This document shows, one piece after another, positions 2,481 to 19,241 of a stretch of DNA of 19,425 bases (position 1 is the stretch's first letter; each line of letters opens with the position of its first letter). Source of the stretch: a virus. Made by a program: the position numbers and the translations under genes. The stretch spans positions 1 to 19,425 of IMG/VR virus record IMGVR_UViG_3300045988_170948. One strand, given 5' to 3'. The notes beneath the pieces were generated by a model. The model ran no database searches. It was not told the origin of the DNA and saw only the letters and a program-made list of their open reading frames with translations.

Positions 2481-2522
2481 CTACTATGTAAGTTGCTGAT
2501 TATCAGTGCTTATATAGTAGTG
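2479..2522 (+). terminator. Long imperfect hairpin, candidate terminator after the tape measure gene
   Basis: CACTACTATGTAAGTTGCTGAT-T-ATCAGTGCTTATATAGTAGTG forms paired blocks of 9+4+5 bp with one G:U pair and a small internal bulge. T-rich sequence follows (CTATGTCTATTTTATTTTT). Confidence 0.4.
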
Positions 2523-2525
2523 CTA

Positions 2526-2573
2526 TGTCTATTTTATTTTTATTATATAACCTAGTTGAGTAAAAACTTGACA
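2526..2573 (+). promoter_or_regulatory. Conserved intergenic element, copy A (candidate phage-specific promoter for the head module)
   Basis: TGTCTATTTTATTTTTATTATATAACCTAGTTGAGTAAAAACTTGACA aligns with copies at 11683-11731, 19193-19241 and 17446-17397 (-). It lies 79 nt upstream of ATG 2653 and has the same orientation as the downstream genes. Confidence 0.55.
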
Positions 2574-2652
2574 TTTGATAGTATACAAATATATAAAAAT
2601 AGAAGATTGTAACAATATTACATTTTTAAAATAGCTTATATATTAATAAAAA

Positions 2653-3243
2653 ATGGAAAAAATGTATAATGATCTTCCATTATATCAAGCAATTATTGCC
2701 GATGATTGTGATGGAATAGAGTTCGTAGCATTGACCAGTAAACCTGCAACCCAAGTTAATTGGCTTGCTTTTGGGGAATCTCAGAAGTTCTCGATGGATG
2801 AAGAAAAACATATAGTTACTTCTTGTTTAATGGTATGTGATATACCTATATTTAGACGGGATAGTAAAAACGGAGAATATTATATTCAATATGATAAAGA
2901 AACTCTCCGTTTAATGGCTGAAAAAATGATGTATGATAAGAGAACTACTGATGTAAATATTGAACATTTGGAAGATTCGGTAATTCCTGGAATAATTCTT
3001 CAAGAGCTATATATTAAAGATATAGATAGAGGAATTAATCCAGTTGAATTTGCTGATTGTCCAGATGGTTCATTATTTGCTACTTATAAAGTAAATAATC
3101 CTGTTATATGGGATGCAATTAAAGCTGGAAAGTTTAAAGGGTTCTCTATTGAGGGATTGTTTACTTTAGAAAGACAATCTGATGAATATGAGGAACTTAA
3201 AGAGATTCAAAAAATGTTGAGAAAAATAAAAAGAGTTAAATAG
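2653..3243 (+). CDS. Prohead protease, XkdF-like (putative)
   Basis: The N-terminal GIEFVALTSKPATQVNWLAFGE resembles the V-A-L-V-x-x-P-A-x-x-x-x-F-x-A-F signature I recall for the XkdF-type phage serine protease domain. The gene sits upstream of the scaffold and major capsid genes. Ends in TAG. Confidence 0.5.
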   Translation: MEKMYNDLPLYQAIIADDCDGIEFVALTSKPATQVNWLAFGESQKFSMDEEKHIVTSCLMVCDIPIFRRDSKNGEYYIQYDKETLRLMAEKMMYDKRTTDVNIEHLEDSVIPGIILQELYIKDIDRGINPVEFADCPDGSLFATYKVNNPVIWDAIKAGKFKGFSIEGLFTLERQSDEYEELKEIQKMLRKIKRVK

Positions 3244-3244
3244 A

Positions 3245-3856
3245 ATGTATAGTGGAGTTATATATCTAGCAACAAATCTTATAAATGGCAATAAATATGT
3301 AGGACAAACAAATAATTTCTTGAGAAGAAAGAATGAACATAAATACAGTTCTAATCTTACATATTTTCATAGAGCGATTAGGAAATATGGATTCAATAAC
3401 TTTAAATGGGAAATTCTTCAAATCTTTTGTTGTTCTTCTACAGAATTATTGAAAAGACAACTAAATAATGCAGAAATTAAATATATTCAGTTATTTGATA
3501 CATTAAATAATGGTTATAATTTAAATGAAGGTGGAGGTTCTAATACTGGATTTAAACACAGTGAAGAATCTAAACACAAAATGTCTTTAAAACAGTCTGG
3601 AAGAGTATTAAAGGATGAAACAAAATTAAAGTTAAGAGAATGTAGATTGGGAACTAAACAAACTGAACAGCAGAAAGAAAAAGTAAGTAAACGTATAATT
3701 ATGACAGATATTAATGATACTTATATATGCACTTGGAAATCTGCTATGGACGCTGAAAGAAACGGAAATTTTGATCATAGTGCTATTATAAAATGTTGCA
3801 AAAATAAACAAAACTATCATAAAAATTTTAAATTTAAGTATGAACAAATTAACTAA
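3245..3856 (+). mobile_element. Free-standing GIY-YIG homing endonuclease gene 1
   Basis: GVIYLATNLINGNKYVGQT (GIY..YVG), RRKNEH, AEIKYIQLF..NGYNLNEGG and a NUMOD3-like GFKHSEESKHKMS are present. The C-terminal tail is basic and looks DNA-binding. The gene is inserted between protease and scaffold, starting 2 nt after the protease TAG and overlapping the scaffold start by 17 nt. It has no in-frame TGA. Confidence 0.85.
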
Positions 3857-4451
3857 ACTGAGAATCGAACTTAGTAAACTCTTAGCAAAATTTAACGATG
3901 TTAAGACTAGTGCTGGAGTTCTAACTTACGATGGTAGTGAGGATGAGGATCTAAGGGCAGGTATGAGTGTATATACAATGGATACTGATACTGGCGAATA
4001 TGCACCTGCTGCTGATGGTGAGTATGTTACCGAAGATGGCAAAACGATTGTTGTTAAAGACGGTAAAGTAGAGTCCATTACTGATCCTAAAGCTGTAGTA
4101 GATCCTGAAGAAGACAGGACTGTTGAGGTTGATGCTGCTTGTGGAACTAAGAGAGTAAAAGCTGAGGAAGTTGCTGATCCTGCTGTTGAAACAGACGGTG
4201 TTAAAGAAACTGAGACTGATGCAATCGACGCTATTCATCGCGAAATTAATGAGCTCTATGATATTGTAGATAAGCTTGTTAAGAAAGTAGCAGAACTTGA
4301 AGGAAAGTCAGAAGCTACTGAAAAGACTGTAGAAAAAATGAGTAAGATGAGTGCTGCTTTTTCAGCAGAGGAAACACTCGAAAATAAAACAACTGCTCCT
4401 ATAAGTGGAATAGCAGAAATAGATAGAAAGCTTAAAAACTTTATTGGTTAA
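3840..4451 (+). CDS. Capsid scaffolding protein (putative)
   Basis: Acidic protein directly upstream of the major capsid gene. It carries a GEY..EDGKTIVVKDGKV motif and a C-terminal helical, coiled-coil segment (IHREINELYDIVDKLVKKVAELEGK). Confidence 0.55.
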   Translation: MNKLTKLRIELSKLLAKFNDVKTSAGVLTYDGSEDEDLRAGMSVYTMDTDTGEYAPAADGEYVTEDGKTIVVKDGKVESITDPKAVVDPEEDRTVEVDAACGTKRVKAEEVADPAVETDGVKETETDAIDAIHREINELYDIVDKLVKKVAELEGKSEATEKTVEKMSKMSAAFSAEETLENKTTAPISGIAEIDRKLKNFIG

Positions 4452-4472
4452 TTTATAAAATTTTAAATAATT

Positions 4473-5378
4473 ATGGCAAATAGTCCTGTAATGACAACTC
4501 TTCCTGCTTATGTGGAGCAAAGACGTCTCCCTCTTATTAAGGAAGCTGTTTTAAAAGCTAAGAGTGCAAGTTTGTTCAATCTTCAAACAGATATTAAAAC
4601 TGATGCTGCTCTTAACCTGTTATCTACCGATGTTCAGTTCGGTGATGGTCTTACTTGTGGTTGGGATGAGGCTGGAACTCAGACTCTTTCTCAGAGAATT
4701 CTTAAGACTGGTAATATTAAGATTAATATGGCATATTGCGATAAGGCTATGCTGAAATACTGGACTCAGTATGCAGTTAAGGTAGCCGCTGGTCAGAAGA
4801 CTCTTCCTTTTGAAGAGGATTTCGTAAATGCTGTTGTAGAGAACGTAAAAGAGGCTATTGAGGTAGCTATCTGGCAGGGTGATACGGCTTCAGAAACTAA
4901 TAACTTGAAGTATTTTGATGGTCTGCTTAAGATTCTTGCTGCTGATAATGGTACTGTAGATGTAACAATTGCTGGAACATCTGCCTATACTGACATTATG
5001 GCAGTTTATAATGCAATTCCTGAGAAGGTTCTGGATGGTGCTTCTATCTTAGTTGGTGCCGATATGTTCCGTAAGTTCGTAAATGAACTTGTTGAGAAGA
5101 ACTATTTCCACTATAGCGGAGAGAGCCTTAATGGTGAGATTTATCTTCCTGGTTCACAGGTTAAGGTTATTGCTGTTAATGGTCTTAATGGAACTGGTAA
5201 GATTGTTGCTGGTCAGTTAGACAAGAACTTCTTCTATGGTGTAGATATGATGAACGATGAAGAGAAATTCGAATTGTGGTATTCACAGGATTTCCGCGAG
5301 TTCAGATTAGCTATTGAATTTAACGCTGGTGTACAAGTTGCTTTCCCTGACGAAGTAGTATTAGGCGCCAAGGCTTAA
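4473..5378 (+). CDS. Major capsid protein (HK97-fold type)
   Basis: 301 aa, positioned after protease and scaffold. The N-terminal PAYVEQRRLPLIKEAV and the C-terminal NFFYGVDMMNDEEKFELWYSQDFREFRLAIEFNAGVQVAFPDEVV look like phage capsid family proteins. The four Trp visible in the quoted motifs (CGWDE, KYWTQ, AIWQG, ELWYS) are all TGG, and there is no in-frame TGA. Confidence 0.8.
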   Translation: MANSPVMTTLPAYVEQRRLPLIKEAVLKAKSASLFNLQTDIKTDAALNLLSTDVQFGDGLTCGWDEAGTQTLSQRILKTGNIKINMAYCDKAMLKYWTQYAVKVAAGQKTLPFEEDFVNAVVENVKEAIEVAIWQGDTASETNNLKYFDGLLKILAADNGTVDVTIAGTSAYTDIMAVYNAIPEKVLDGASILVGADMFRKFVNELVEKNYFHYSGESLNGEIYLPGSQVKVIAVNGLNGTGKIVAGQLDKNFFYGVDMMNDEEKFELWYSQDFREFRLAIEFNAGVQVAFPDEVVLGAKA

Positions 5379-5418
5379 TTTCAATAGATTTTATTAACTT
5401 ATAAATGATATTGAAATT

Positions 5419-5943
5419 ATGGCTTGTTTAATAACTATCGCAGGAATCACACTTGATTGCCAACCTTCATTAGGTGGTATCAAACAGGTTTGGATTACTC
5501 AGTATTCAGATGTTAAGAGTGTAACGGTTGATCCTGAGAGCAATATGATTTCAGCTATTACTCTTGAGTCTTCAGCTAAATGGTATAACTACCAATTTAG
5601 AAAGGCTACTGGTTCTCTAACCTCAACTTTAAATGTAGATGAAAGTGCTGGTGTTAATTATGTAAGTAATGAGCTTGCTCTTGTATTTACAAAGATGGAA
5701 ACAGCAAAACGAGTAGAGATTGCAGCTTTATCAATTGGTCAGCTTGCAGTTGTTGTTGAAGACAGCAATGGTAAGTATTGGTTCTTAGGTAAAGATGATT
5801 ATGTAAGCGCTTCCGCTGGTACGGGTGTTACTGGTACTGCTAAAGGTGATCAGAATGCTTATACTCTGACACTTTCAACAGATTCAGATTCTTATCCTTA
5901 TGAGTTATCTGCAGAAGCTATCCAAAGCGTTGTAGGTGCTTAA
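5419..5943 (+). CDS. Putative major tail (tube) protein or other abundant virion protein
   Basis: 174 aa. The pattern GGIKQVWI...F..A.....T.......G..Y....L.LVF.......R.....L...QLAVVVEDSNGKYWFLG resembles tail tube families I recall. A strong terminator follows immediately, as expected for a highly expressed structural gene. Confidence 0.4.
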   Translation: MACLITIAGITLDCQPSLGGIKQVWITQYSDVKSVTVDPESNMISAITLESSAKWYNYQFRKATGSLTSTLNVDESAGVNYVSNELALVFTKMETAKRVEIAALSIGQLAVVVEDSNGKYWFLGKDDYVSASAGTGVTGTAKGDQNAYTLTLSTDSDSYPYELSAEAIQSVVGA

Positions 5944-5953
5944 TAACAGAAAG

Positions 5954-5990
5954 AGGGGCGAGTATTAATTTACTTGCCCCTTATTTTGTT
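5954..5990 (+). terminator. Rho-independent terminator
   Basis: AGGGGCGAGTA-TTAATT-TACTTGCCCCT gives an 11-bp stem with one G:U pair, followed by TATTTTGTT. Confidence 0.8.
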
Positions 5991-6034
5991 TATATACCAC
6001 ATAATGAATAATTTATATTTTATAGAAAAATAAT

Positions 6035-8170
6035 ATGGCAAACGAAACTGAAAAGACAATTCTTCCCTATCTTAATGTCCTTGAAGTCGAAACAATAGAT
6101 AAGTCAAATGTGACTAAAGTTATTGTTATTGACAAGGATGATGAAGTTAAGGTTATGGATGGTTCTCAGTTAGGATCAAGTAACTATCAAGATCTTCAAT
6201 TTAAGCCTGAAATCAATGGGGTTGAATTAAATGGAAATATTCCTTCTAAAGAATTAGGAATTCCTTCTATTGAAGATATTGACAATCAAATTACAGAGAA
6301 ACTTATTGACTATCCAACTAAAGAAGAAGTTACTGTAGAAATAACTGAAGCTACTTCTGGCAAACAAGATATATTAGTTCAAGGTAATGGTATAGTAATT
6401 GAGGATAATACTATTTCAGCAGATTATTCTACAATTAATAATAAGCCATTTTTAAATGGAGCAGAGCTTATTAATCCTACAGTAATAGTTCCATCAATTC
6501 AGATTAAAGCTATCCCTGATAAAGTAACAATAGCTCCAATATTTGGAAATCAAACTGGAGACGCTGAAGAACTTCCTGTTTATAATACTGAAACTAATTC
6601 TGCAGGTCTAATTAATGCTGATTTATATGCTCAGTTATCAGATAAATATACAAAGGCTGAGATTGACAATCTAAATGCAGAAATTAATAAAGCTATAAAT
6701 GCAAAACAGGGAACATTAACGGCAGGAGCTAATATATCTATTGTTGATAATGTAATATCTGCATTCCAGAATCACTTCTTCTTAAATTTAGATATTAATG
6801 ATCCAGATAGACAGTTAGAAATATATAACTTCATTAGAAGTAATATGGACTTCTATTTATTTGGGCAGATTACATATAATGAAGATACAATAGTAGTTCC
6901 AATGACTGTAGTAGAGCATACTAATACTATTGATTTATATGGATACTATTTTAAAGATGATGGGGTATTAGTAACTATTAATGCTATTATAGTTAATAAT
7001 GGCCAAATGACTGTTAAGACCACAGAAGTTGATCTTACTAATAAAGGTTATACTAAAGATGAAGTAGATGAGAAACTTGCAACTAAGCAAGGTGTATTTA
7101 CTCCACAAGCTCCATTAGCTTTTAATGAAGATAAATCCCAATTATCTGTAGATTTATCTGGATACCAACCAGTTGGTGATTATGCTTTAAAGAGTGATAT
7201 TCCAACTAAAGTTAGTGAGCTTACTAATGATTCTAACTTTGTAACTGAAGCAGAGGTTTCTGGAGATTTAGCAGGTAAAGCAGATAAGACTTATGTTGAT
7301 GAGCAACTTGCTACTAAACAGCCTGTAGGAGATTATGCAACAAAAACTGAACTTGCTGGTAAAGCTGATTCTTCTGTAGTAGAATCTTTATCTACTCAAG
7401 TAGCAACTAATACTTCAGATATATCAATTATTAAAACAAAGCAAGAAGAAGATGGAGATAAGATTGATTCTCTTGATAAAGAGATGGCTACTAAGCAAGA
7501 TTTACTTGTAAGTGGAACTAATATCAAAACAATCAATAGTCAATCTTTACTTGGAGAAGGTAATATAGTAATTGATAGTGGTTCTAATATTCCATATCTA
7601 TTTATAAATTCCTCAACCCATCTTTCTGGAGATTTCGCTGCTGTTAAGAATGCTATAGCTAATAAAACACCATTTGAGCTTTATTATGTAAATATTCTAG
7701 GTTATGGTGATATAGCAGCTCCAGAAGTATGTTTTGTTTCAGGAGAAAATATTCAAGCTACTTTCCATTTTGAAAGTACGACAGCTAATCATACTGTAGT
7801 TCAAACTACTATTACTCCAACTGGAGTATCTGCTGATACTAGTTATCATAGTTATCAAGAACAGTTAGTTTCTGGTACTAATATAAAGACTATTAATGGT
7901 GAAAGTATTTTAGGAGAAGGTAATCTTGAAATATCTGGAGGTGGAGGGACTACTGACTATACTCAGTTAACAAATAAACCTCAGATTAATTCTGTTGAGT
8001 TATCTGGCAATAAGAGTTTATCAGATTTAGGTATTCAGCCTGCTGGAAACTATATTGAAGCTGGAACTGGAACCCAACCTCAAATAAATACGATTACTGT
8101 TCTAACTCAAGCAGAGTATGATAGTTTATCAACTAAAGATCCTAATACACAATATTTAATTGTAGAATAA
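6035..8170 (+). CDS. Tail fibre protein with internal repeats
   Basis: 711 aa. A repeated 24-aa motif L(L/V)SGTNIKTIN(S/G)(Q/E)S(L/I)LGEGN occurs at nt 7502-7573 and 7864-7933. Repeated KP.ING.EL.GN.....LGI and TK.EL..KAD motifs are typical of phage fibres. No TGA. Confidence 0.8.
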   Translation: MANETEKTILPYLNVLEVETIDKSNVTKVIVIDKDDEVKVMDGSQLGSSNYQDLQFKPEINGVELNGNIPSKELGIPSIEDIDNQITEKLIDYPTKEEVTVEITEATSGKQDILVQGNGIVIEDNTISADYSTINNKPFLNGAELINPTVIVPSIQIKAIPDKVTIAPIFGNQTGDAEELPVYNTETNSAGLINADLYAQLSDKYTKAEIDNLNAEINKAINAKQGTLTAGANISIVDNVISAFQNHFFLNLDINDPDRQLEIYNFIRSNMDFYLFGQITYNEDTIVVPMTVVEHTNTIDLYGYYFKDDGVLVTINAIIVNNGQMTVKTTEVDLTNKGYTKDEVDEKLATKQGVFTPQAPLAFNEDKSQLSVDLSGYQPVGDYALKSDIPTKVSELTNDSNFVTEAEVSGDLAGKADKTYVDEQLATKQPVGDYATKTELAGKADSSVVESLSTQVATNTSDISIIKTKQEEDGDKIDSLDKEMATKQDLLVSGTNIKTINSQSLLGEGNIVIDSGSNIPYLFINSSTHLSGDFAAVKNAIANKTPFELYYVNILGYGDIAAPEVCFVSGENIQATFHFESTTANHTVVQTTITPTGVSADTSYHSYQEQLVSGTNIKTINGESILGEGNLEISGGGGTTDYTQLTNKPQINSVELSGNKSLSDLGIQPAGNYIEAGTGTQPQINTITVLTQAEYDSLSTKDPNTQYLIVE

Positions 8171-8171
8171 T

Positions 8172-9293
8172 ATGAATATTAGAGATGATTTAAAAACATT
8201 TTATGTAGGTGACAGACAAGGTACTGCTATTTATGTCGGCAGTACCAAAGTCTGGCCTATCAATCCTTGTAATCCACAAATAGTTACAGTTGCTAATCCA
8301 GTTCCTCAAGGTACTACAATAGTTGATCCTTGCAGTTATGTATTTAGCAGTTATGATGGAACTATAAATGATATACAAAGGGATTGAATGGGTAGAGGAT
8401 CTGACCTTACTTCTACAGTAATTAGTTTTACTGCTGATTTAAGTGAATTAGCCCTTAATATAGATGGTGTACCTCTTTGTAGTATTATAGGTTCTGCTCA
8501 AACATATGCAGATGTAAAGTTAAATAGTGGAGATTTAAGTAGAAAAGGAGGGTTTTTTAAAACATCTCATTTTGATCTAAATAACCAGGAGATTACTAAT
8601 CTTAATGAAGCATATGGAAGATGGTCTAGTGAATCTCAATTTTGGGGTCAAACAATACATAGTGCCACTTTATCTAATGTTAAAATACCTACAACTACTA
8701 AAGAAGTAAGTGCAAATTATTTATTTATTGGAGTAAAAATAGATAATAATGATTTCTCTGTAATGAATAATTTTCAAAATCTTGTATTAGTAGATCCAAA
8801 ATGGGCATTTGCAGAGACAGCTGACGGAGCTACTAATATAGATAATATAACGATTAATATTCCCTTTAAAGGAGATTGTAATCATATGTTTCATAGAGCA
8901 TTATATCTAACAACTATTCCAAGTAATTTTATCTTTACTGGAATTACAGATATAAGCTATATGTTTAGTACTTGTAGTAGATTAACAGCTACACCAGAAA
9001 TAGATTGTCATCTTGTTACAGATTGTACTAGTTTTGCTGCATCTTGTCCAGAATTAGTCACTGTAGGAGCTTTAAATGGATTAGGAGAAGGTTTTAAAAC
9101 TGCTAGTCTTCTATATTTTGCTCAATCTCCAAATTTATCTACGGATTCATTACAAACTATAGCAGAATCTATTGGTGAGTGTATATTTAGTGGTTCTGCT
9201 ATATCCTTTAAATCTACTGCATATGATAAACTTACAGATGAACAGAAATCATTAATCGCTTCAAAGAATTGGAGCATAAATCGAGTTGCATAA
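8172..9293 (+). CDS. LRR-type (BspA/DUF285-like) receptor-binding candidate 1, 373 aa if TGA 8385-8387 is Trp
   Basis: ORF-track 8172-8387 and 8388-9293 share a frame and are joined by GAT-TGA-ATG-GGT. The C-terminal part carries ..MF....L..IP-type leucine-rich repeats (CNHMFHRALYLTTIP, ISYMFSTCSRLTATPEI). The C-terminus LTDEQKSLIASKNWSI is paralogous to the end of 10710-11678. Confidence 0.6.
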
Positions 9294-9295
9294 TT

Positions 9296-9532
9296 ATGAA
9301 AATTGAAATTAAAGAAAAATATAAAGTAGTTAGTCCAGAAGAAGGTTATATACTTACTAACTATAAAGAAGGAATGGATATTAAATTATACAGTTCATTT
9401 ACTGAATGTATCTGTCCTTTAAGTTGCGATTTAGAGCATCTATCAGAAGTCTCTTTAGATAAGGATGCTGAATATAAAGAATTAGCTATTAAAGCTTCTA
9501 AAGAGTATGAGGAATCAATAAAAGTTAGATAA
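9296..9532 (+). CDS. Hypothetical protein (78 aa)
   Basis: The ATG at 9296 sits in a TAA-TT-ATG junction with the upstream stop. The ORF-track start at 9269 would overlap the upstream gene. No recognisable motif. Confidence 0.5.
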   Translation: MKIEIKEKYKVVSPEEGYILTNYKEGMDIKLYSSFTECICPLSCDLEHLSEVSLDKDAEYKELAIKASKEYEESIKVR

Positions 9533-9534
9533 TT

Positions 9535-10194
9535 ATGATTATACTTAAGAATACTAAAAATACACAAACTTTCTATGTAAGTAAGAAATGTGGTATTGAA
9601 TCTGGACAACTTCCTGTTGGTTCTTATACTAAGATTGAAGCAGATGAAAGATTCCAACCTAAAGGTAATTACATTTCTGAAGAGAAAGCAGAAGAGTTAA
9701 TTAATACTAAAGTAACAGAAAGTATTGAAGATCAAGTTCCTCCTTTAGTAGATCAATCTATAGATGCTAAGCTTGTTCCAATTAATACTGAGATTACTAA
9801 TCTTAAAGGGGAAGTTGAGGAGTTAGAAACTTCTAAGATGGAAGTATTCCAAGCTAATCAACCTCTATCTTTACATAGAAATGGAGAAGGTTTGCAACTA
9901 TCTGTAGATTTAAGTAATTATGCAACTAAAGCAGAAATTCCTGATACTAGTGATTTTGCTACTAAAGAAGAGCTTACAGCTGTAGAGAATAAGATTCCTG
10001 ATGTATCTGGATTAGCTACTAAAGATGAAGTTGCACTTAAAGCAGATAAAAGTGAGTTATCAAACTATGTAACTACAGATGCATATAATACAAAGATGAC
10101 AGAGTTAGATGGAGAAATCTCAGCAATTCAAGCTCAGATTGGTAATATTTCAACTACTCTTGATACAATTAATGGTGAAATTCCAAATGAATAG
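9535..10194 (+). CDS. Tail fibre-like protein (coiled-coil and short repeats)
   Basis: Repeats [49 protein letters not shown] resemble those of the 711-aa fibre. The start sits in a TAA-TT-ATG junction. Ends in TAG. Confidence 0.6.
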
Positions 10195-10708
10195 AGTATT
10201 AACAAATTATCCTAACTATAGTGTATCTTCTACAGGAGATGTATATAGTAACCCATTGACTTTTAAAGATTCTATTGGAAGAACCAGAAAACAAATACAT
10301 AAAAAGCTAAAACAGCATATAGATAAATATGGCTATAATTATGTAATTCTAGTATCTGGCTTAGATAAACCTAAAGCTATTAAAGTTCACAGACTAGTAG
10401 CAGAAGCATTTATTCCAAATCCTGACAATCTACCATATGTTAACCATATAAATGAAAATAAGACAGATAATAGGGTAGAAAATTTAGAATGATGTGATGC
10501 AAAGTATAATAATACATATGGAACTAGAATAAATAGATGTATTGATAAAATTAGTAAACCTGTAGGGCTATTTATTAATGATTTACTAGTTAAAACATAT
10601 AAAAATGCAATTGAAACATCAATAGATGGGTATACTCATAGTAGAGTTATAGATTGTCTTAAAGGAAGAACAGACACTTATAAAGGGGTAAAATTTAAAT
10701 ATATCTAA
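10187..10708 (+). mobile_element. Free-standing HNH homing endonuclease gene (NUMOD4-like N-terminus plus HNH_3-like core)
   Basis: [21 protein letters not shown] followed by [37 protein letters not shown](10490-10492)-CDAKYNN. The TGA sits exactly on the Trp of the conserved NLEW motif. The frame continues to TAA 10706-10708. The gene overlaps the upstream fibre gene by 8 nt. Confidence 0.85.
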
Positions 10709-10709
10709 T

Positions 10710-11678
10710 ATGGCAAATACAATTTCTGATAAATTAACGTATCTTGAAGGTACTAAAAGTGCCATTAAAGATGCTATTGTAGCTAAAGGTGTTGCTGTAT
10801 CAGATTCAGATACCTTTAGAAGCTATGCAGATAAGATAGGACAGATTTCTGGAGGTGGTGGAGGAAAGATTAATTTAAATGATTATGGATTAACATTTGC
10901 ATATTCTAGTATGACACAAGAGCAATATAATAATATAGAATATTCTCTTCCAGATAATATAAATCATTGATTTGATGGGACTAATTTCATATCTACAATA
11001 GATATATCAAGTCATATTGATCTGTCTAAAGTATATGACGCATCATATGCCTTCCAAAACACATATAATATATATATTGATAATATAAGAACTAGTGTTG
11101 GGGATTCGTACGCATTTTCTGGATTTCAAGGCATACTAAATAATTTAGAATTAATTAATACCTTATCCTCTAGTTGAAATTATGCAACAAGAACATTCTT
11201 TAATGCTTCTAATTTACCAACTACTTTAAAAGTGATAAATGAAGTTGATACTGGTGTATCATCTTTACAATTTTTCTTTTATTCTGTTAGCAGTAATGTT
11301 CCTGAAATTGAAGTTATTAATGGACAACTATCTTTATATTATTACTTTAGTGCATATAATGAGGGTGTTACAACAGTAGGAAAAATTAAATTAAATAATT
11401 GCACATTAACAGAAGATCTAAATAAAACTTCAATATGTGCATCTGCTAATACTACTGTTACTTATTTTGGGGGTGTTGAAGGAGCTGATAAAAGTATGAA
11501 TTTAGCAAATTTTAGAGCACTAAATAGTCAATCAGTAACTGATATTATTACAAATGTTAGTGATTTAACTGGAAAGGATACCAAAACTTTAACTTTTTAT
11601 ACTAACGTTTATAATGCACTTACTGAGGAACAGAAATCATTAGCTACATCTAAAAACTGAACTTTAGCATCAGCATAA
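10710..11678 (+). CDS. LRR-type receptor-binding candidate 2 (322 aa, three TGA=Trp)
   Basis: ORF-track pieces 10710-10970 and 11232-11660 share a frame and are joined through TGA 10968, 11175 and 11658 with no TAA/TAG. The N-terminus ISDKLTYLEGTKSAIKDAIVAKGVAVSDSDTFRSYADKI is a common fibre N-terminal motif. The C-terminus LTEEQKSLATSKN-TGA-TLASA aligns with ..SKN-TGG-SI of 8172-9293. Confidence 0.7.
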
Positions 11679-11682
11679 TTTT

Positions 11683-11731
11683 TGTCTATTTTTATTTTTT
11701 CTTAGTACTTTGAGTGAGTAAAAACTTGACA
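11683..11731 (+). promoter_or_regulatory. Conserved intergenic element, copy B
   Basis: TGTCTATTTTTATTTTTTCTTAGTACTTTGAGTGAGTAAAAACTTGACA starts 4 nt after the upstream TAA and ends 103 nt upstream of ATG 11834. Confidence 0.55.
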
Positions 11732-11758
11732 TTAAAGGAGGCTTAGGTCTCCTTTAAT
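11731..11758 (+). other. Perfect 10-bp hairpin abutting element copy B (5' leader structure or terminator)
   Basis: ATTAAAGGAG-GCTTAGGT-CTCCTTTAAT. The first base is the last A of TTGACA. It is followed by TATTTTAAT. Confidence 0.5.
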
Positions 11759-11803
11759 TATTTTAATACATTAGTAAATTGGTTTATATTTTAAGAAAAA
11801 GAT

Positions 11804-11832
11804 ATGTAAAAGTAATGTAAAACTATGTAAAA
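11804..11832 (+). repeat. Three tandem ATGTAAAA units (start-stop minicistrons) directly upstream of ATG 11834
   Basis: ATGTAAAA occurs at 11804-11811, 11815-11822 and 11825-11832, spaced 11 and 10 nt apart. Confidence 0.6.
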
Positions 11833-11833
11833 T

Positions 11834-12226
11834 ATGAATTATACTTTATTAATGCAAAATACAACTACTAAAGAAGTTTATACATTTGATCTTGAAAATC
11901 AGAATTATTCTGAGAATATCTACTATAAGTTTGATATTACACTTCAAGAAGGAATGAGAGACGGTGAATATCAATATATTTTATTTACTAATCCAAATAA
12001 ATTTCAAGTTATAGTTGATGTAAACAATCCATTTAGATCAGAGTTATATGGCAATCCAGTTATTCTGGTTACATATAATAATACTCTTACTAATGGTACT
12101 CAGATATTAGTTGCTGGTAAACCAATACCTATATTGGGAACAGGATTAATAAGAATTGGAGATTATGAGAATAATAATTATCAATACGACAAATCTAATA
12201 CATACGTAAGTTATGAGCGAAAATAA
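11834..12226 (+). CDS. Hypothetical protein (130 aa)
   Basis: Intact ORF ending in TAA, and the first gene after element copy B. No recognisable motif. Its end overlaps the portal start by 14 nt. Confidence 0.5.
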   Translation: MNYTLLMQNTTTKEVYTFDLENQNYSENIYYKFDITLQEGMRDGEYQYILFTNPNKFQVIVDVNNPFRSELYGNPVILVTYNNTLTNGTQILVAGKPIPILGTGLIRIGDYENNNYQYDKSNTYVSYERK

Positions 12227-13304
12227 AACAAAAGTTCAGTTAAGTGCTATTGATCCATTTATTGCAAGTAATATCGTATTACCTACAGAAACTAAAGTAA
12301 GAGGAAAAGATTATGTAATGTGGGGAGAAGATAACAAATATCCATTATATCTATGAGATTTATACTTAAATGTTGCTACTCTCCAATCTATTATTAATGG
12401 TTCTGCTGACTTTATTGTTGGTAATGATGTTAAATGTAATGCTCCAGGATTTGAAGTAGTTGTAAACAAGAAAGGTGAAACAATAGTTGATATAATGAGA
12501 AAAATCACTATTGATAAGATGATATTTGGAGGTTATGCTATCCAAGTAATTAGAGATATGCTTGGAAGAGTTGCAGAGATCTATCATATTGATTTTATGA
12601 ATGTAAGGTCAAGCGAAAAGAATGATATATTATATTATGCAACTGATTGGACAGCTTGGTCTGTAAAAGCTATAAAATATCCAAAATTTGGAGCTGCTGA
12701 TGAAAATCCAGCTAGTATATTTTATAATAAAGGTTATATAACAAGAGGAGTATATCCTATTCCTGTTTATGGAGCTGCTATTTTATCTTGCGAAACTGAG
12801 AAAAATATTAATGAATTCCATTTAAATAACATCAATAATGGATTTATGGGTAATCTTATTATTAACTTTAATAATGGGGAACCTACAGATGAAATTAGAG
12901 AGGAGATTGAGAGGAATATTAATGAGAAGTTCTCTGGTTATCAGAATGCTGGCAGAATATTGATTTCATATAATGCAGATGAGGCAAATAAGACTACTAT
13001 TGAAAGATTAGATTCTGATGATTTTGATGAGAAATATCAATCGTTATCTGAGAGAACAAGAGATCAAATATTCTGTGCCTTCAGAGCTAATCCTTCGTTG
13101 TTCGGTTTAAACTATAGCTCAGGATTTAATGAAAATGAGTTTAATGAAGCATTTAAGCTATATAATCGTACTTTTGTACGCCCAATACAATCAGAAATTT
13201 GTGACTCATTTGATAAAATCTTCGGCATTAAGAATAGTATTACTATTGAACCATTTAGTTTAACTCCAAAAGGAATGTCAGACAATGCAGAAAATGTTGA
13301 ATAA
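12213..13304 (+). CDS. Portal protein (364 aa, one TGA=Trp)
   Basis: ATG 12213 is in frame with ORF-track 12495-13304 through TGA 12354-12356. MSENKTKVQLSAIDPF...VMWGEDNKYPLYL-W-DLYLNVATLQSIINGSADFIVG together with FHLNNINNGFMGNLIINF matches the N-terminal and core pattern I associate with phage portal proteins. Confidence 0.7.
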
Positions 13305-13947
13305 TTATACAGTGTACTGCCATAAGAATATAGCTGATAATAAATTATATTTTGGAATAACATCACTTACTTTAAATAATAGATGGGGAACTAAAGGTCA
13401 AGGTTACAAGAATAATCTTTATTTTAGCAGAGCAATTAAAAAATATGGTTGAGATAATTTTGAGCATATTATAATTAGAGATAATCTTCCAGAAGCTTGT
13501 GCTAAGACTTTAGAAAAGATTCTGATTTATAAGTATAATACTAGAAATCCAAAATATGGGTATAATTTAACTGATGGAGGAGACGGTACTTGTGGATATT
13601 CTTTTTCACAAGATTATAAAGATAGTCTTAGAATTATAAGATCAGGAGAAAATAACTCATTTTATGGTAAACAGCATTCAGATGAAAGCAAGCGTAAAAT
13701 GAGGGAGGCAAGATTAGGCAAAACTCCTTGAAATAAAGGTATGAAACTCTCAGATAAAGAAAAACAACTAATTTCAGAACGTCAGTGCAAAAAAGTATAT
13801 AAGTATGATTTAGATGGTAATTTTATTTGTGAGTATAAATCAGCTAAGGAAGCTGGAGAGAAGAATAATGTAGATTCTTCTAGTATATCTAGATCTTGTA
13901 GAAAAAATAAACCCTGCAAAAATTATAAATATTATTATGGAATATAG
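13294..13947 (+). mobile_element. Free-standing GIY-YIG homing endonuclease gene 2 (two TGA=Trp)
   Basis: MLNNYTVYCHKNIADNKLYFGITS (GIY..YFG); AIKKYG-TGA(13450)-DNFEH; LEKILIYKYNTRNPKYGYNLTDGGDG; NUMOD3-like HSDESKRKMREARLGKTP-TGA(13729)-NKG. The gene overlaps the portal end by 11 nt and the next gene's start by 11 nt. Confidence 0.85.
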
Positions 13948-14614
13948 AAATGTACTATTAATATCTGAAGATTATATAAAATCAGAATCCAATTTAGACA
14001 ATAATGTTTCTGGTAAATATCTTCAGTCAGCAATTAAACTTGCACAAGATATTGAGCTTCAGTCATTAATTGGAACTAAGCTCTTAGAAAAGATTCAGAA
14101 ATTAGTAATTGATTGAAAAGACCCAAATAAACCAGTTCATCCAATAGAACCTCCTATTTATGATCCTACTTCTATAGATGACCCAGAAAATCATAGATAT
14201 AAAGAATTGCTAGATTACTATATTCAGCCTTATTTACTTTATCAAGTATTAAGTGAGATTACTATACCTATTTCGTTTAAGCTTAGTAACTTTGGTGTTA
14301 TGAGGACTGATGATGAGAAAGATTTAACTTCTGATATTAATCAAGTTAATCTTATTAAGAAATATTATAGAGATAAAGCAGATTTCTTTAAAACAAGATT
14401 ACAAAATTGGGTAATTACATATTATAATGATTTTCCTGAATTGTATTCTTATAAACCTCTTAAAGATATGTATCCAAATATGTATTCAAGTTCATCTTGC
14501 ACTATTTGGTTAGGTGGAGCTAGAGGTAAAGGTTGGAGATATAATTCTTGTGAAGGTCCTCTGCAAAGAGCTTATGATTTCCCTTCAAGTGATAACAATA
14601 AAAAGAGTAAGTAA
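13937..14614 (+). CDS. Putative head-tail connector/adaptor protein (225 aa, one TGA=Trp)
   Basis: ATG 13937 is in frame with ORF-track 14207-14614 through TGA 14114-14116. The N-terminus ISEDYIKSESNLDNNVSGKYLQSAIKLAQDIELQSLIGTKLLEKI resembles head-tail adaptor N-termini. The position after the portal gene supports this. Confidence 0.4.
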
Positions 14615-14615
14615 G

Positions 14616-15041
14616 ATGACGTATTTTGAATTAATAAACAATTTAAAAGCTTGTGCTCTTGAAGAACCCAATATTAATTTTGTAGGAAGTAAGGATATAT
14701 ATGAACTTAATAGTATCCCAACTATTGAATATAATGTATTTTATATAACTCCAAATACATTTAATATGGATGAGGATACTATTACTTACTCTTTAAATCT
14801 CTATTTTATAGCAAGATGGGATGAGACTGATAATAATCAGCTTGAAGAGCAATCAGCTGGAATATTAGCATTAACTAATATAATTAACCGATTTAATAAC
14901 CAATATCCAGAAGTTGATATTTCTTATCCTTTAATTTTTACTCCATTTTATCAGAAGTTCAAAGATATTTGTACTGGAATATTTGTTAGAGTTGATTTAG
15001 CTGTAGACAACACTCTGGGTACTTGTTCTGATAATATGTAA
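14616..15041 (+). CDS. Hypothetical virion or morphogenesis protein (141 aa)
   Basis: ATG 14616 lies 2 nt after the upstream TAA. The ORF-track start at 14514 would overlap the previous gene by 100 nt. No motif recognised. Confidence 0.5.
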   Translation: MTYFELINNLKACALEEPNINFVGSKDIYELNSIPTIEYNVFYITPNTFNMDEDTITYSLNLYFIARWDETDNNQLEEQSAGILALTNIINRFNNQYPEVDISYPLIFTPFYQKFKDICTGIFVRVDLAVDNTLGTCSDNM

Positions 15042-15694
15042 TGGAAAATAAATTAAACTGGTTTGGAAAGGTATTAGAATGAGTAGATAAATATGGACTG
15101 TGGAAAATAATTAAAGGTGGATTTGGATTTATATTTATTTCTTATGTAATAATTATAAGTACTAATCCAGGAATAATATATGATAAAGTTGTAAGTTATA
15201 TAGAAACAGTTCATAATACTAATCAAGTAATACGACAAGAAGCAGATCTTAAGGTTAGATATATTCTTAAAGATCTTTTAAATGATACGAATGCAGATAG
15301 AGCTTGAGTTATTGAGTATCATAATGGCACTTCAGGATTAGGAGGACTTCCATTCACTTATGGAATTATGAATAGTGAAGAAACAGAACCTGGAGTTGCT
15401 CCAGTTTCAAGTCATTATAAAGACTTCCTATTATCTGATTATTTATTTATATTAGAAACATCTAAAAAAGGAGGATGATTTGGAGATGTTGAAGATATAA
15501 AGGAATTAGATAGAAGAATGTACTATACATTTAAATCTAATGATGTTAATAAGATTGCAATATTCTATTTAAAATCAGAAGATAGAGATATTGGAATTTT
15601 AGGCTTATCTTATTGTGATAATGAGATGCCAGTTGATACTTGAGTAAAACTAAGAGATGCAGGAATTAAAGTAAGTATAATTTTAAATAAATAA
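15041..15694 (+). CDS. Membrane-anchored protein (217 aa) with four TGA=Trp codons; possible GAF-like globular domain; first gene of the lysis cassette
   Basis: Absent from the ORF track because TGA at 15080, 15305, 15476 and 15641 splits it into pieces under 60 aa. It begins at a TAATG junction with the upstream gene and ends in TAA 15692-15694. It has one N-terminal hydrophobic helix (GGFGFIFISYVIIISTNPG). The C-terminal part (ADRAWVIEYHNG...KIAIFYLKSEDRDIGILGLSY) loosely resembles a GAF fold. Confidence 0.65.
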
Positions 15695-15697
15695 GTT

Positions 15698-15859
15698 ATG
15701 AAATATTGGATGAAATATTTAATAGCAATAGTAATTATAATCTTAGTATTTTTAATGGTAAAAGTAATTCCATTTTGGATTACATTAGTACTCATAGCAC
15801 TTGGTGCAGGATGTCATTTATTTTACCGTTATACTATGCTTAAAGATATTATTAAATAA
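15698..15859 (+). CDS. Holin candidate (53 aa, two TM helices)
   Basis: MKYWMKYLIAIVIIILVFLMVKVIPFWITLVLIALGAGCHLFYRYTMLKDIIK has two hydrophobic helices and a charged C-terminus. It lies directly upstream of the endolysin and shares a TAATG junction with it. Confidence 0.55.
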   Translation: MKYWMKYLIAIVIIILVFLMVKVIPFWITLVLIALGAGCHLFYRYTMLKDIIK

Positions 15860-16308
15860 TGAAATATTTTACTATTAGTGAATTAACAAGATCTGATACA
15901 GCTTCTATTAAGAAGATAGATAATACTCCAAATAAAGAGATTACTGAACACCTTATAGAGTTAGTCGAGAAACTTTTAGACCCATTAAGAAGTGATTGGG
16001 CAGAGTATTGTGATGTTAATCGGTTGGGAAATCCAGCAATAAGTGTGAATTCAGGTTATAGATGTAATAAGCTTAATAAAGCTGTAGGAGGATCTTTGAT
16101 ATCTGCTCACCTAACAGGATATGCGGCAGATATAATTCCAAGTAACGGCCAAATGAAAGAATTTCAGGTTTGGATTACTGAAGCTATTGAAAAGTATGAT
16201 TTTGACGAATGCTTTATAGAAAGAAGTAGTACTGCTCACTGAGTGCATATTGCTTTATATAGTATTAAAGGATTACAACGAAGAAAGAAAGGTAATTTAT
16301 ATGTATAG
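15859..16308 (+). CDS. Endolysin, zinc peptidase M15 (Peptidase_M15_3-like), one TGA=Trp
   Basis: [28 protein letters not shown] matches the SxHxxGxAxD metallopeptidase core. The frame continues through TGA 16240-16242 (STAH-W-VHIALY) to TAG 16306-16308. Confidence 0.85.
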
Positions 16309-16891
16309 TGTATATGTTCATTTAAACAAGATTAATGGTAAGAAATATATTGGAATTACTTGTAAGAAGCCAGAGATACGATGGGCAAACGGTCTTGGCT
16401 ATAGAAAACAGCCATTTGAAAATGCTATTAAAAAATATGGATGAGATGGATTTGAACACATTATAGTTAAAGAAGGATTACCAGAAGCTTGTGCTAAAAC
16501 ATTAGAGAAGATTCTTATTTATAGATATAATACTCGTAATCTGAAATACGGTTATAATGCTACAGACGGAGGTGATGGCACATTAGGAATTACATTTACT
16601 CAAGAAAGAAAAGACAAGATAAGAGCTAAAAGTATTGGAAGACATCCATCAGAAGAAACTAGGAAAAAGATGAGTGATAGCCAGAAAGGAAGAGATTTGA
16701 GCTATTTAAATAATTCTTTTGGCAATAATCCAAGAGCTAAGAAAGTAGGTGCATATAAAGATGATATTCTTATTAAAGAATATGATTGTGCAGTTAGTGC
16801 TTCTTTAGATGTCGGAGTTCATAAAAATTCTATTGCTAAAGCAATTAGAGAAGGTTATAAAGTAAAAGGATTCAAGTGAAGATATGTTTAA
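16301..16891 (+). mobile_element. Free-standing GIY-YIG homing endonuclease gene 3 (two TGA=Trp), paralogue of gene 2
   Basis: [20 protein letters not shown]; AIKKYG-TGA(16442)-DGFEH; LPEACAKTLEKILIYRYNTRNLKYGYNATDGGDG; ..KVKGFK-TGA(16877)-RYV then TAA 16889-16891. It overlaps the endolysin end by 8 nt. Confidence 0.85.
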
Positions 16892-16899
16892 TAAAAAAG

Positions 16900-16926
16900 A
16901 AAAGGAGGGCAAATAACCCTCCTTTT
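16900..16926. terminator. Bidirectional rho-independent terminator between convergent modules
   Basis: AAAAGGAGGG-CAAATAA-CCCTCCTTTT gives a perfect 10-bp stem. An A-run lies on the left and a T-run on the right. It sits between + strand stop 16891 and - strand stop 16930. Confidence 0.85.
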
Positions 16927-17396: not shown

Positions 17397-17446
17397 TGTC
17401 TATTTTTTACTCAACTAATGTATATAGATAAAAATAAAAATAGACA
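17397..17446 (-). promoter_or_regulatory. Conserved intergenic element, copy D (on the - strand)
   Basis: The - strand reads TGTCTATTTTTATTTTTATCTATATACATTAGTTGAGTAAAAAATAGACA. It begins 2 nt after the helicase TAG and points at the three small - strand genes. This copy has perfect 11-bp terminal inverted repeats (TGTCTATTTTT / AAAAATAGACA). Confidence 0.55.
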
Positions 17447-17448
17447 TA

Positions 17449-19167
17449 CTAATTTTTAAAGACATACTTTTTACCTATAATAGTATATCCATAAGATCTG
17501 TTTCCATTCACTGATTTTTTAGTTACCTTAACTTCATAATATTTTGTAATATCAGTAGCTTTAGCATTAGTTTTATTAACTAAATCATAAGCTTTTTGTA
17601 GTATCTTTTTAATATCAGTATTAGAATACCACATACCTAAAGTTATATCTTTATTAAGTTTATTTGCTACTTTATTATCTACAGATTTATCTGAAGTTTT
17701 AATAAGTTCATCTTTTATTTTAGTAATACAGTATTTTAGAGTGGCCATTTTATTGAATCCAAGTTTAGTAATAGCATCCATTAACCAAGGGTATTTAATA
17801 AGAGCATCATCTAATTTTGGGGTGTTTACCTTATATAAGGTTTCATATTCCTCTCTTACTTCTTTAATTATATCTTTAAATGCTTTTGTTTTAGTATTTA
17901 GATCTATTTTTATAGAATTATCATATTGTTCTACCACTTTATTAAATCCTTTATTAATATATTCCTTAGAAAGATTAGCTCTAGCAGAATACAGTCCCCT
18001 AGATACTTTAAAATTAAATAAATCAATTTTAGCCATATTAGGGTCAAATTCAAATACATCATCCCAATTTAATTTAATGTATGCATCAGAAGTAAATTCT
18101 CTAAGTTTCTTTTTAGCTATCTCTGGAAGTTTATTGTATGCTTCTACAGCAATTTTAGTTTCTTCAATATTCTGGATATTAAGCTTTTTAAATTCTTCAT
18201 AAGATATATCAGCATATCTTGTTGTAGAATAAATGTGAGTTATCCAATTAATATATTTACTATTTCTAATTCTACCAGCAATCTGCTGTATAGAAGTTGA
18301 TATATCAAGTAATGTATTAGCTTTACTTGGATCAGATATAATTATTATCCTTCCATTTTCATCATAAATATCTGAACCTTCAAATACAGTTGAAGTTAAT
18401 AAGTTTATTTTCTTAGGTTCATCTAAGACTGTTGAATTAGGAATTGACAGTTTAGTTTTATTGTTTTTGGAATATATAACTCTGGTATTATTAGATGTTA
18501 ATTTGGCTTTCTTAATAAGGTTCTTTATAAAGTCTACTGAATTAACGAATATGTAGGCGTTACCTTCAACCTGTCCGTTTAAAAATCCATTTATAAGTTT
18601 AATAGTAGAAGCTTCTACATTATCACATTTAACAGTTTGCACTTTTACATCTATAACATCATCCCATTCCTGCTTTACTAATTCTAAATCTTTTAATTCA
18701 TCTAATACAAACTCTTCCTCTAAAGGTGTTGCGGTCATAAATGTAAAATTACCAAATAATTTATAATATTTAAGCACTGATTGAATAGCAGAGCTTCTAA
18801 AGCTATACTGATTAAAGAGAATATGATATTCATCAATTAAAATGCTAAACTCTTTAGGATTAATTGCAGAAATAACTTTATAAAGAGAATCATAGGTAAC
18901 AATGATTTTAGGGCATTTAACACTATCTACATAATCTTTAATCTCTTTAATAGTAACACCAGCATAAACTCCAAATATCTTCTCAGTACGTCTTTCATTT
19001 GGATATTGTTGAAGTTTATTTTCAACTAAGCTAGTAAATGGAACACAAATAACATAAGGCTTATTGCATTCAATTGCCATTGAAGTTCCTCCACATCCAA
19101 CTTTTCCTTTATCAAATAAACAGTTAGTTGGCAACTCATTAATAATTTCATTTAAATATGTTTTCAT
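17449..19167 (-). CDS. Superfamily 2 DExH-box helicase (572 aa)
   Basis: Motif I-like GKVGCGGTS, motif II LIDEYH, motif III MTATP and motif VI QQIAGRIRN are present. The five Trp visible in the quoted motifs (QEWDD, INWITH, LNWDD, YPWLMD, GMWYS) are TGG, and there is no in-frame TGA. Ends in TAG. Confidence 0.75.
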   Translation of the reverse strand: MKTYLNEIINELPTNCLFDKGKVGCGGTSMAIECNKPYVICVPFTSLVENKLQQYPNERRTEKIFGVYAGVTIKEIKDYVDSVKCPKIIVTYDSLYKVISAINPKEFSILIDEYHILFNQYSFRSSAIQSVLKYYKLFGNFTFMTATPLEEEFVLDELKDLELVKQEWDDVIDVKVQTVKCDNVEASTIKLINGFLNGQVEGNAYIFVNSVDFIKNLIKKAKLTSNNTRVIYSKNNKTKLSIPNSTVLDEPKKINLLTSTVFEGSDIYDENGRIIIISDPSKANTLLDISTSIQQIAGRIRNSKYINWITHIYSTTRYADISYEEFKKLNIQNIEETKIAVEAYNKLPEIAKKKLREFTSDAYIKLNWDDVFEFDPNMAKIDLFNFKVSRGLYSARANLSKEYINKGFNKVVEQYDNSIKIDLNTKTKAFKDIIKEVREEYETLYKVNTPKLDDALIKYPWLMDAITKLGFNKMATLKYCITKIKDELIKTSDKSVDNKVANKLNKDITLGMWYSNTDIKKILQKAYDLVNKTNAKATDITKYYEVKVTKKSVNGNRSYGYTIIGKKYVFKN

Positions 19168-19192: not shown

Positions 19193-19241
19193 TGTCTATT
19201 TTTATTTTATCTATACACATCAAGTGAGTAAAAATTTGACA
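19193..19241 (+). promoter_or_regulatory. Conserved intergenic element, copy C (points rightwards, away from the helicase)
   Basis: TGTCTATTTTTATTTTATCTATACACATCAAGTGAGTAAAAATTTGACA lies in the divergent region right of the helicase start. Confidence 0.5.

Follow-up and report, generated by a model that had tools for sequence, protein, structure and literature searches.

In a viral sequence of 19,425 nucleotides (nt) (IMG/VR record IMGVR_UViG_3300045988_170948; the whole stretch is called the window below), a gene of 217 codons located at 15041-15694 on the + strand encodes a membrane-anchored protein, which is probably a remote T-type (class III, T4 gpt / T5 hol) holin with a GAF-like regulatory domain. 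The frame is a real gene, concealed solely by the use of the wrong translation table. A hidden frame as such is ordinary in a code 4 phage that is read with table 11. The protein belongs to a large unannotated family, whose genes typically lie beside those of endolysins; the family looks like a branch of the class III holins that has diverged, and a GAF-like domain appears to be present both in the family and in T. The entire analysis was computational.

The gene and its reading frame

The ATG of the gene (15041-15043) shares a base with the TAA of the upstream gene (15039-15041, junction TGTAATG), and the frame closes at the TAA at 15692-15694. Four TGAs, at codons 14, 89, 146 and 201, are the only in-frame stops of table 11. 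In the list of standard-code open reading frames, this part of the + strand is represented only by a fragment of 41 amino acids (aa). At the base composition of the window the probability of a chance 217-codon frame free of TAA and TAG is ~3.5e-7. A hidden gene for a 217-aa protein had been proposed here in the original prediction, which was made from the sequence of the window; we confirmed the frame and reproduced the proposed translation exactly with TGA read as Trp.

The meaning of TGA was assessed by comparison with the orthologous genes of 10 other contigs, which contain 2-6 in-frame TGAs apiece. TGA and TGG interchange at four common alignment columns, which bears out the earlier suggestion that the four TGAs are sense codons. 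W or Y occupies the column of codon 89 in 13 of 15 standard-code homologues, and L in the other two. At codons 14 and 146 the residues of the standard-code homologues are aromatic or hydrophobic, never Gly, with F or Y in most of them at codon 146. Because of the TGA/TGG exchanges and of the aromatic or hydrophobic residues in the standard-code homologues, TGA is, on comparative grounds, a Trp codon (code 4). Code 25 (TGA = Gly) was ruled out by the same observations.

With TGA as sense codon, genes follow one another almost without gaps on the + strand from 116 to 16891, and every one of them ends with TAA or TAG. These genes encode tape-measure-like and capsid-like proteins, a portal protein (Pfam Phage_portal), a DUF6712 protein, an M15 peptidase and several homing endonucleases; under code 4 the + strand is a tightly packed phage late operon.

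Predicted fold and membrane topology

Scanning the protein against Pfam, NCBIfam and PADLOC yielded no match, and none of these collections has a model for the family. Its matches in PHROGs were confined to families of unknown function. The structure was predicted with AlphaFold2, using a public protein sequence 99% identical to that of the window (P0001) and an alignment of 50 sequences. The model has a mean predicted local distance difference test score (pLDDT) of 87 and a predicted template modelling score of 0.71. It contains helices at residues 2-41 (continuous, with a hydrophobic core at ~20-41), 43-83, 135-141 and 200-216, and strands at 87-96, 105-115, 145-149, 171-179 and 182-191. The hydropathy profile and the model agree on the one N-terminal transmembrane (TM) helix that had been proposed.

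Foldseek comparison of the model with the PDB revealed 279 chains at E<=1e-3. GAF-containing structures (cyanobacteriochromes, phytochromes, GAF domains of sensor kinases) made up 48 of the 50 listed matches, and the best template modelling score was 0.78, normalised to the GAF target. According to the model, the C-terminal domain has the three-layer alpha/beta fold of the GAF type. The resemblance to GAF domains, which had been guessed from two sequence motifs, is thus correct at the level of the fold. In sequence the likeness is faint: the Pfam GAF profile (PF01590) gave weak matches, below the gathering threshold, in 25 of 50 relatives (best E 0.003) and no match in the window protein itself. 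A profile search of the PDB sequences had the GAF protein 3hcy as best match (E 1.4), in an alignment that shows the typical GAF signature of helix, ADR and first strand.

By Foldseek the fold is common to the window protein and the GAF domains (PF01590) of cyanobacteriochromes, phytochromes, DosS and sensor kinases. Unlike known GAF proteins, the window protein has no known ligand or chromophore residues, no output enzyme and no DNA-binding domain; its domain is fused to a membrane anchor and is encoded in a lysis cassette.

Five Lys or Arg residues precede the TM helix and one follows it, a distribution which favours an orientation with the N-terminus inside. Three of the five Lys located before the hydrophobic core are in the N-terminal segment (residues 2-19).

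Comparison with T-type holins

The holin of phage T4 sets the moment at which the host cell is lysed. This protein, T, has 218 aa: a short cytoplasmic N-terminus leads into one transmembrane domain (TMD), which a bridge helix connects to a globular domain in the periplasm (PMC12162936, PMC11413866, PMC9636201). Hole formation does not require the globular domain, through which the antiholin RI regulates the holin (PMC12162936, PMC11413866, PMC9636201). In the class III holins of both T4 and T5 the TMD and the bridge helix are followed by a globular domain of roughly 130 aa (PMC9636201, PMC12162936). In the original prediction a membrane-tethered globular domain was regarded as non-canonical for a lysis cassette, a view which does not hold, since the class III holin T is built in just this way (PMC9636201, PMC12162936).

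The window protein has 217 aa, compared with the 218 aa of T, and has the layout of T, in which a short N-terminal segment is followed by one TMD, a long bridge helix and, at the C-terminus, a globular alpha/beta domain. A model of a T4-type holin (P0201, 218 aa) contains helices at 28-61, 63-93, 140-146 and 200-217, and strands at 97-104, 111-119, 151-153, 171-178 and 184-192. In the models of both proteins the secondary structure elements follow in the order b1 b2 a b3 (a) b4 b5 aC, and their positions are nearly identical. The predicted bridge helix of the window protein (43-83) is the counterpart of helix 63-93 of the T model and of the bridge helix described in PMC12162936.

Searching BFVD with the model of the window protein yielded phage proteins annotated as holins: the 'Class III holin' of Proteus phage Stubb at E 2.1e-5, the 'Holin' of phiP4-3 at E 2.4e-5 and, with a template modelling score of 0.68, the 'T holin lysis mediator' of Serratia PS2 at E 2.8e-4. 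It also yielded similar phage proteins of ~200-245 aa. When the AlphaFold model P0201 was compared with the PDB, it matched the T crystal structures 6PXE, 6PX4 and 6PSK (template modelling score 0.95-0.98), and the remaining matches among its 50 listed were all GAF-containing (E 1e-6 to 4e-5). Judged from these models, the periplasmic domain of T4 holin T is itself GAF-like, of the same fold class as that of the window protein. No paper linking GAF domains and the T4 holin was found in the searchable literature, which excluded the original T structure paper.

Sequence relationship was tested with two large profiles, built from 198 family sequences and 126 T holins. Aligned with hhalign, the profiles gave P 1-2e-4 and a probability of 46-58% over 138-145 columns; in the run with residue numbering, residues 38-195 of the window protein were aligned with 46-196 of T. 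The reversed control gave P 0.039, and 20 block-shuffled controls gave P 0.13-0.65. Identity over the aligned region is ~8%. The hidden Markov model (HMM) of the family matched 38 of the 126 T holins at E<1e-3 in two collinear segments (best E 1.8e-7, 23.6 bits), and the T HMM matched a family member at 2.6e-6; with reversed or shuffled controls E was 0.005-0.9. Glu113, which is invariant in the family, was aligned with the near-invariant Glu118 of T.

There are clear differences. The family has an invariant motif of its own, NADR...HN...G...E, and it is found in TGA-recoded, Bacteroidota, cyanobacterial and crAss-like phages rather than in T4-like or T5-like phages. Homologues of the T4 antiholins RI and RIII are not evident; a gene for a small partner with two TM helices is present instead. 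By Pfam's own threshold the window protein is not a member of PF11031; it resembles T, probably through distant homology.

Size and conservation of the family

Homology search revealed 21 homologues of the window protein with 39-99% identity, all but one of them full length. The protein is already present in public collections as the 99% identical P0001, whose 90%-identity cluster has 364 member sequences. Pairwise ratios of nonsynonymous to synonymous substitution rates (dN/dS) of the gene were 0.07-0.25 within the clade, and judging by these values it is under purifying selection. With regard to homologues and codon-level conservation, the original prediction was borne out.

A profile search detected 6,393 cluster representatives (50% identity) at E<=1e-3, 1,794 of them at E<=1e-10. 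Nearly all representatives are 200-270 aa long, and one N-terminal TM helix was predicted in 185 of 198 sampled members. Invariant or near-invariant residues are Asp86, Arg87, His94, Asn95, Gly102 and Glu113, all of them polar except Gly102. The PHROGs matched by most members (30125, 38864 and 14038) are all of 'unknown function'. The family occurs in TGA-recoded phages of ~30 kb and in Bacteroidota, cyanobacterial and crAss-like phages. The nearest standard-code relatives of the window protein are encoded by Bacteroidales prophages, and a scan of a genome collection with a 22-sequence alignment found two loci only, both in Bacteroidales metagenome-assembled genomes (MAGs).

If the assignment is true, the class III holins gain a very large and highly diverged branch (the 6,393 clusters), absent from Pfam, NCBIfam and PADLOC and labelled throughout as 'unknown function' in PHROGs, which would supply the missing holin in the lysis cassettes of many Bacteroidota, crAss-like and marine phages. 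The regulatory domain of T would then be recognised as GAF-like, which would suggest testable sensing of a ligand or partner in lysis timing.

Genomic context of the family

Many contigs of ~30 kb contain a full-length homologue, and their gene order is fixed: portal, DUF6712, a 141-aa gene, the gene of the window protein, a gene for a 53-aa protein with two TM helices, and Peptidase_M15_3. An M15 endolysin just downstream and conserved synteny in relatives had both been anticipated, and the endolysin was verified by its match to PF08291. Just upstream of the homologue a gene of 140-154 aa was called in every ~30-kb relative; the 53-aa gene was sometimes uncalled. The latter is conserved in the clade (dN/dS 0.10-0.48), and its product had no significant family match in library scans. 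Two features of the 53-aa gene were considered and rejected: a dual-start motif (MKYWM), since Met5 is not conserved, and a lipobox, since the Cys is replaced by Ser in relatives.

The context of more distant members was studied in 21 non-redundant standard-code lineages (from IMG/VR and two Bacteroidales MAGs), together with the window clade and Nonlabens phage P12024S. Directly downstream of family members, or past one small TM gene, we found peptidoglycan hydrolases of seven Pfam families (Table 1). DUF5675 is suggested to be a phage endolysin family by its position between the T-like protein and a gene resembling those of unimolecular spanins. The cassettes of L037, L038 and L049 consist of the family member, the endolysin and a lipobox protein with a C-terminal TM helix, similar to a unimolecular spanin. 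In L099 and L100 the third gene encodes a lipobox protein in which an N-terminal TM helix alone was detected. No further membrane protein is encoded nearby in these five loci. The family member therefore takes the place of the holin in cassettes that are otherwise complete for a Gram-negative host. The L099 and L100 loci, which are those of the Bacteroidales MAGs, lie at an apparent prophage end.

The same arrangement was found for genuine T-type holins: in T5-like phages and in Vibrio phage Luma their gene is directly upstream of a gene in the endolysin position. In Luma this gene is annotated as M15; in the T5-like phage it encodes an unannotated 137-aa protein, which we take to be an M15 peptidase.

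The lipobox genes bear on the possibility that the window protein is a spanin-like or other envelope-disrupting component of type II topology, acting through a periplasmic domain on the outer membrane or the cell wall. Such a role would suit a lysis-cassette protein that has an N-terminal TM helix and whose C-terminal domain may be periplasmic, and no spanin was recognised in the window phage. We consider it very improbable: the soluble part is predicted to be compact, alpha/beta and GAF-like, not the coiled coil of an i-spanin (features in PMC12894885), the window encodes no lipoprotein partner, relatives have separate spanin-like lipoprotein genes 3' of the endolysin, and a gene upstream of the endolysin is in the usual position of a holin.

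Arguments for and against a holin function

Several observations weigh against a T-type holin. The cross-family bit scores of ~20-24 are significant only as a targeted test, not database-wide. With small alignments (50 vs 7 sequences) the hhalign comparison was not significant (probability 3%), PF11031 (Phage_holin_T) was unmatched at E<=1 by the window protein or 50 relatives, and in library scans no holin model of any kind was matched by family members. The Cys pair C175/C207, invariant in the T alignments, is absent from the window protein, which has a single Cys (C192), and no Cys is conserved across the family; we take this pair to be the periplasmic disulfide of T4. The charge bias of the window protein is not seen family-wide, where the 15-aa flanks of the TM helix contain on average 2.15 and 2.39 Lys or Arg residues; the same count was barely informative for genuine T holins (2.69 vs 2.44). 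The family-wide count was accordingly set aside as evidence on topology. GAF domains are usually cytoplasmic. The conserved 53-aa protein with its two TM helices, encoded between the family member and the endolysin, is a conventional holin candidate by itself. Finally, about half of the non-redundant lineages carry the family member outside lysis contexts, for example in Microcystis phages and in large phages, often after genes of tail-fibre size.

The 53-aa protein is central to an alternative that goes back to the original prediction, namely that the window protein is an antiholin or a regulator of lysis timing. The 53-aa protein would then be the true holin, and the GAF-like protein would delay or gate its triggering in the membrane, possibly in response to a ligand. 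The small two-TM gene is conserved in the window clade, and similar genes lie beside family members in L070, L073 and L077; GAF folds are typical sensory modules, and the homologous globular domain of T4 is purely regulatory (PMC12162936). On the other hand, L037, L038, L049, L099, L100 and L062 have the family member and an endolysin with no small TM protein nearby, therefore the family cannot be solely a regulator of such a partner. In addition, the closest characterised relatives in structure and sequence are holins, not antiholins, and the antiholins that are known are either isoforms of a holin or small proteins, soluble or secreted, like RI (PMC11413866). We regard this, the main alternative, as fairly unlikely. 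Because the family member is the sole membrane protein upstream of the endolysin in several relatives, the window protein is more likely the holin, or a co-holin, than an antiholin directed at the 53-aa protein.

The other alternative places the protein outside lysis, as a membrane-anchored GAF sensor or toxin serving superinfection exclusion or host takeover, or acting like SpoIISA, with its adjacency to the endolysin reflecting shared late-gene status. Apart from the lineages in which the member is away from a recognisable endolysin, a precedent exists in Bacillus subtilis, where SpoIISA is a membrane-attached GAF-fold protein that kills cells; its expression disrupts the membrane, and a holin-like action with the GAF domain regulating assembly was proposed (PMC3057836). 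The GAF domain of SpoIISA is cytoplasmic and follows three TM helices, whereas the window protein has one TM helix; SpoIISA is chromosomal, has no associated endolysin and is neutralised by a disordered antitoxin, SpoIISB. The small neighbour of the window gene encodes a membrane protein with two TM helices, unlike the basic, disordered antitoxin that accompanies SpoIISA (PMC3057836). Neither the three TM helices nor the antitoxin partner of SpoIISA was seen at the window gene, and no sequence relationship between the two proteins was detected. Adjacency to seven Pfam hydrolase families in distant lineages is hard to explain without a role in lysis. In a T4-like phage gene t itself follows tail-fibre genes, so a location outside a cassette does not argue against holin function. 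The holin gene of T4 is separate from its endolysin gene. We judge a role outside lysis to be improbable; superinfection exclusion, which had also been suggested, finds no support, given the lysis-cassette context and the lack of a PADLOC match.

A further comparison can be made with the class IIIb holin gp142 of phiKZ, which has a single TMD and one large soluble regulatory domain and is regulated by a partner encoded in its cassette (PMC12894885). The large domain of gp142 is N-terminal, helical and cytoplasmic, whereas that of the window protein is C-terminal and GAF-like.

Proposed mechanism

As a T-type holin the window protein would insert into the cytoplasmic membrane by its one TM helix, with the short amphipathic N-terminal segment inside. 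The bridge helix would carry the C-terminal GAF-like domain on the far side of the membrane (N-in/C-out). The protein would accumulate late in infection and then, at a set time, oligomerise through the N-terminus, the TMD and the bridge helix, permeabilising the membrane presumably by hole formation; the adjacent M15 peptidase could thereby reach the murein. The GAF-like domain may be a regulatory module that, by analogy with T4, holds the holin inactive or responds to a partner or ligand, and the 53-aa two-TM protein may be the co-holin or antiholin partner. Control of lysis timing might also be coupled to a ligand.

A more far-reaching proposal would be that the periplasmic domain of T and the family described here descend from a GAF-type sensor and jointly make up a widespread class of holins gated by a ligand or a partner, so that in many Bacteroidota, cyanobacterial and recoded gut phages lysis timing is set by a GAF-read signal. 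We offer this only as a speculation, with the odds against it. If true, the signal would be analogous to that of T4 lysis inhibition, where periplasmic DNA with RI is read, and sensing of this kind would be common, not a T-even speciality.

Use of TGA in the ~30-kb phages

The gene has the highest TGA count and density of the window: TGA is used at four of its six Trp codons, compared with ~18 of 51 in the whole window. In the orthologues of L009-L011 all six Trp codons are TGA. This richness fits the reported preferential recoding of lysis genes, in one genome and with small numbers. Table 11 breaks both the holin candidate and the M15 endolysin at in-frame TGAs, an example of annotation failure under the wrong code.

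In this type of ~30-kb phage, nearly all genes use TGA as Trp codon, including the terminase gene and small, presumably early genes (window; L006 1-20657), and no gene terminates in TGA. The window and its relatives together appear to span the whole ~30-kb genome. No tRNA (ARAGORN) or Rfam RNA, suppressor tRNA included, was found in the window or in nine related loci. TGA is presumably decoded either by a host that reads TGA as Trp and yet has peptidoglycan, or by an unconventional factor. Since TGA occurs in almost all genes, including early-looking ones, and a suppressor tRNA is not detectable, a code switch in mid-infection is not evident.

Recoding of stop codons in lysis genes is already on record for alternatively coded phages (Borges et al., bioRxiv 10.1101/2021.08.26.457843). 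As in those phages, TGA encodes Trp in structural and lysis genes of the window phage, and the most heavily recoded genes include one for a TM protein of the lysis cassette (10.1101/2021.08.26.457843). Unlike those phages, the window phage has TGA in almost all genes and no detectable suppressor tRNA.

Other features of the window

The coordinates of the features are collected in Table 1.

Table 1. Features of the window and of related loci carrying members of the family
Sequence	Feature	Position	Strand	Evidence or remark
Window	Gene of 217 codons + TAA, TGA = Trp; membrane-anchored GAF-like protein, candidate class III (T-type) holin	15041-15694	+	
Window	In-frame TGA, codon 14 (Trp)	15080-15082	+	TGA in 9 of 10 compared orthologues, Ala in 1
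Window	In-frame TGA, codon 89 (Trp), conserved motif NADRAW	15305-15307	+	10 orthologues: TGA 6, TGG 4
Window	In-frame TGA, codon 146 (Trp)	15476-15478	+	TGA/TGG exchange between orthologues
Window	In-frame TGA, codon 201 (Trp)	15641-15643	+	Orthologue comparison
Window	N-terminal segment, residues 2-19, predicted helical, putatively cytoplasmic	15044-15097	+	AlphaFold2 model, charge count
Window	Single TM helix, about residues 20-41	15098-15163	+	Kyte-Doolittle maximum 1.86, sole hydrophobic segment
Window	Long bridge helix, residues 43-83, from TM helix to globular domain (predicted)	15167-15289	+	AlphaFold2, pLDDT 81-97
Window	GAF-like alpha/beta domain, residues 84-217 (predicted)	15290-15691	+	Foldseek vs PDB and BFVD, conservation
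Window	Upstream 141-aa gene, no TM helix	14616-15041	+	TAA overlaps ATG of the 217-codon gene
Window	53-aa gene, two TM helices; candidate small holin, co-holin or antiholin	15698-15859	+	Hydropathy
Window	Endolysin, Peptidase_M15_3, one in-frame TGA	15859-16308	+	PF08291 E 2.6e-14; PHROG 894 'endolysin' E 3.8e-26
Window	Homing endonucleases, GIY-YIG	3245-3856, 13285-13947, 16250-16891		Within structural/lysis module
Window	Homing endonuclease, HNH-type	about 10109-10708		Within structural/lysis module
L037	Downstream hydrolase, DUF5675	4664-5092		Pfam E 5.7e-34; weak Tlde1-like match
L049	DUF5675 protein in endolysin position	4677-5105		
L038, L058	Downstream hydrolase, GH108+PG_binding_3			
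L099, L100	Downstream 192-193-aa protein			N-terminal sequence GH108-type as in L038 (by sequence likeness)
L054	Downstream hydrolase, Amidase_3			
L062	Downstream hydrolase, Glucosaminidase+Amidase_2+SPOR			
L070	Downstream hydrolase, Amidase_2			
L073	Downstream hydrolase, M15_4			
L077, window	Downstream hydrolase, M15_3			
Nonlabens phage P12024S	Downstream protein			Annotated 'peptidase M15'
L037, L038, L099, L100	Lipobox genes 3' of endolysin	L037 5089-5595; L038 5240-5848; L099 5202-5852; L100 4806-5453		e.g. LTFIGC, FASVSC, LLVSCG

The presence and position of the homing endonucleases vary between close relatives: L003 and L008 have no GIY-YIG protein after the portal gene, and in L003, L005 and L007 the M15 gene is followed by a NUMOD1 protein instead. 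These differences between close relatives indicate that endonuclease turnover is active.

An imperfect inverted repeat of 43 nt (81% complementary) and an adjacent perfect one of 16 nt, located at 17397-17446 and 19193-19241, exactly bracket a 572-aa gene on the minus strand (17449-19167). This is the longest gene of the window without TGA among its Trp codons (0 TGA, 5 TGG), and it had no PHROG match. The bracketed gene could be a mobile or invertible cassette, or the repeats could be paired regulatory sites.

The + strand late operon and the minus-strand genes converge on a GC-rich hairpin (16904-16922, stem GGAGGG...CCCTCC), preceded by an A-run and followed by a T-run, which looks like a bidirectional intrinsic terminator.

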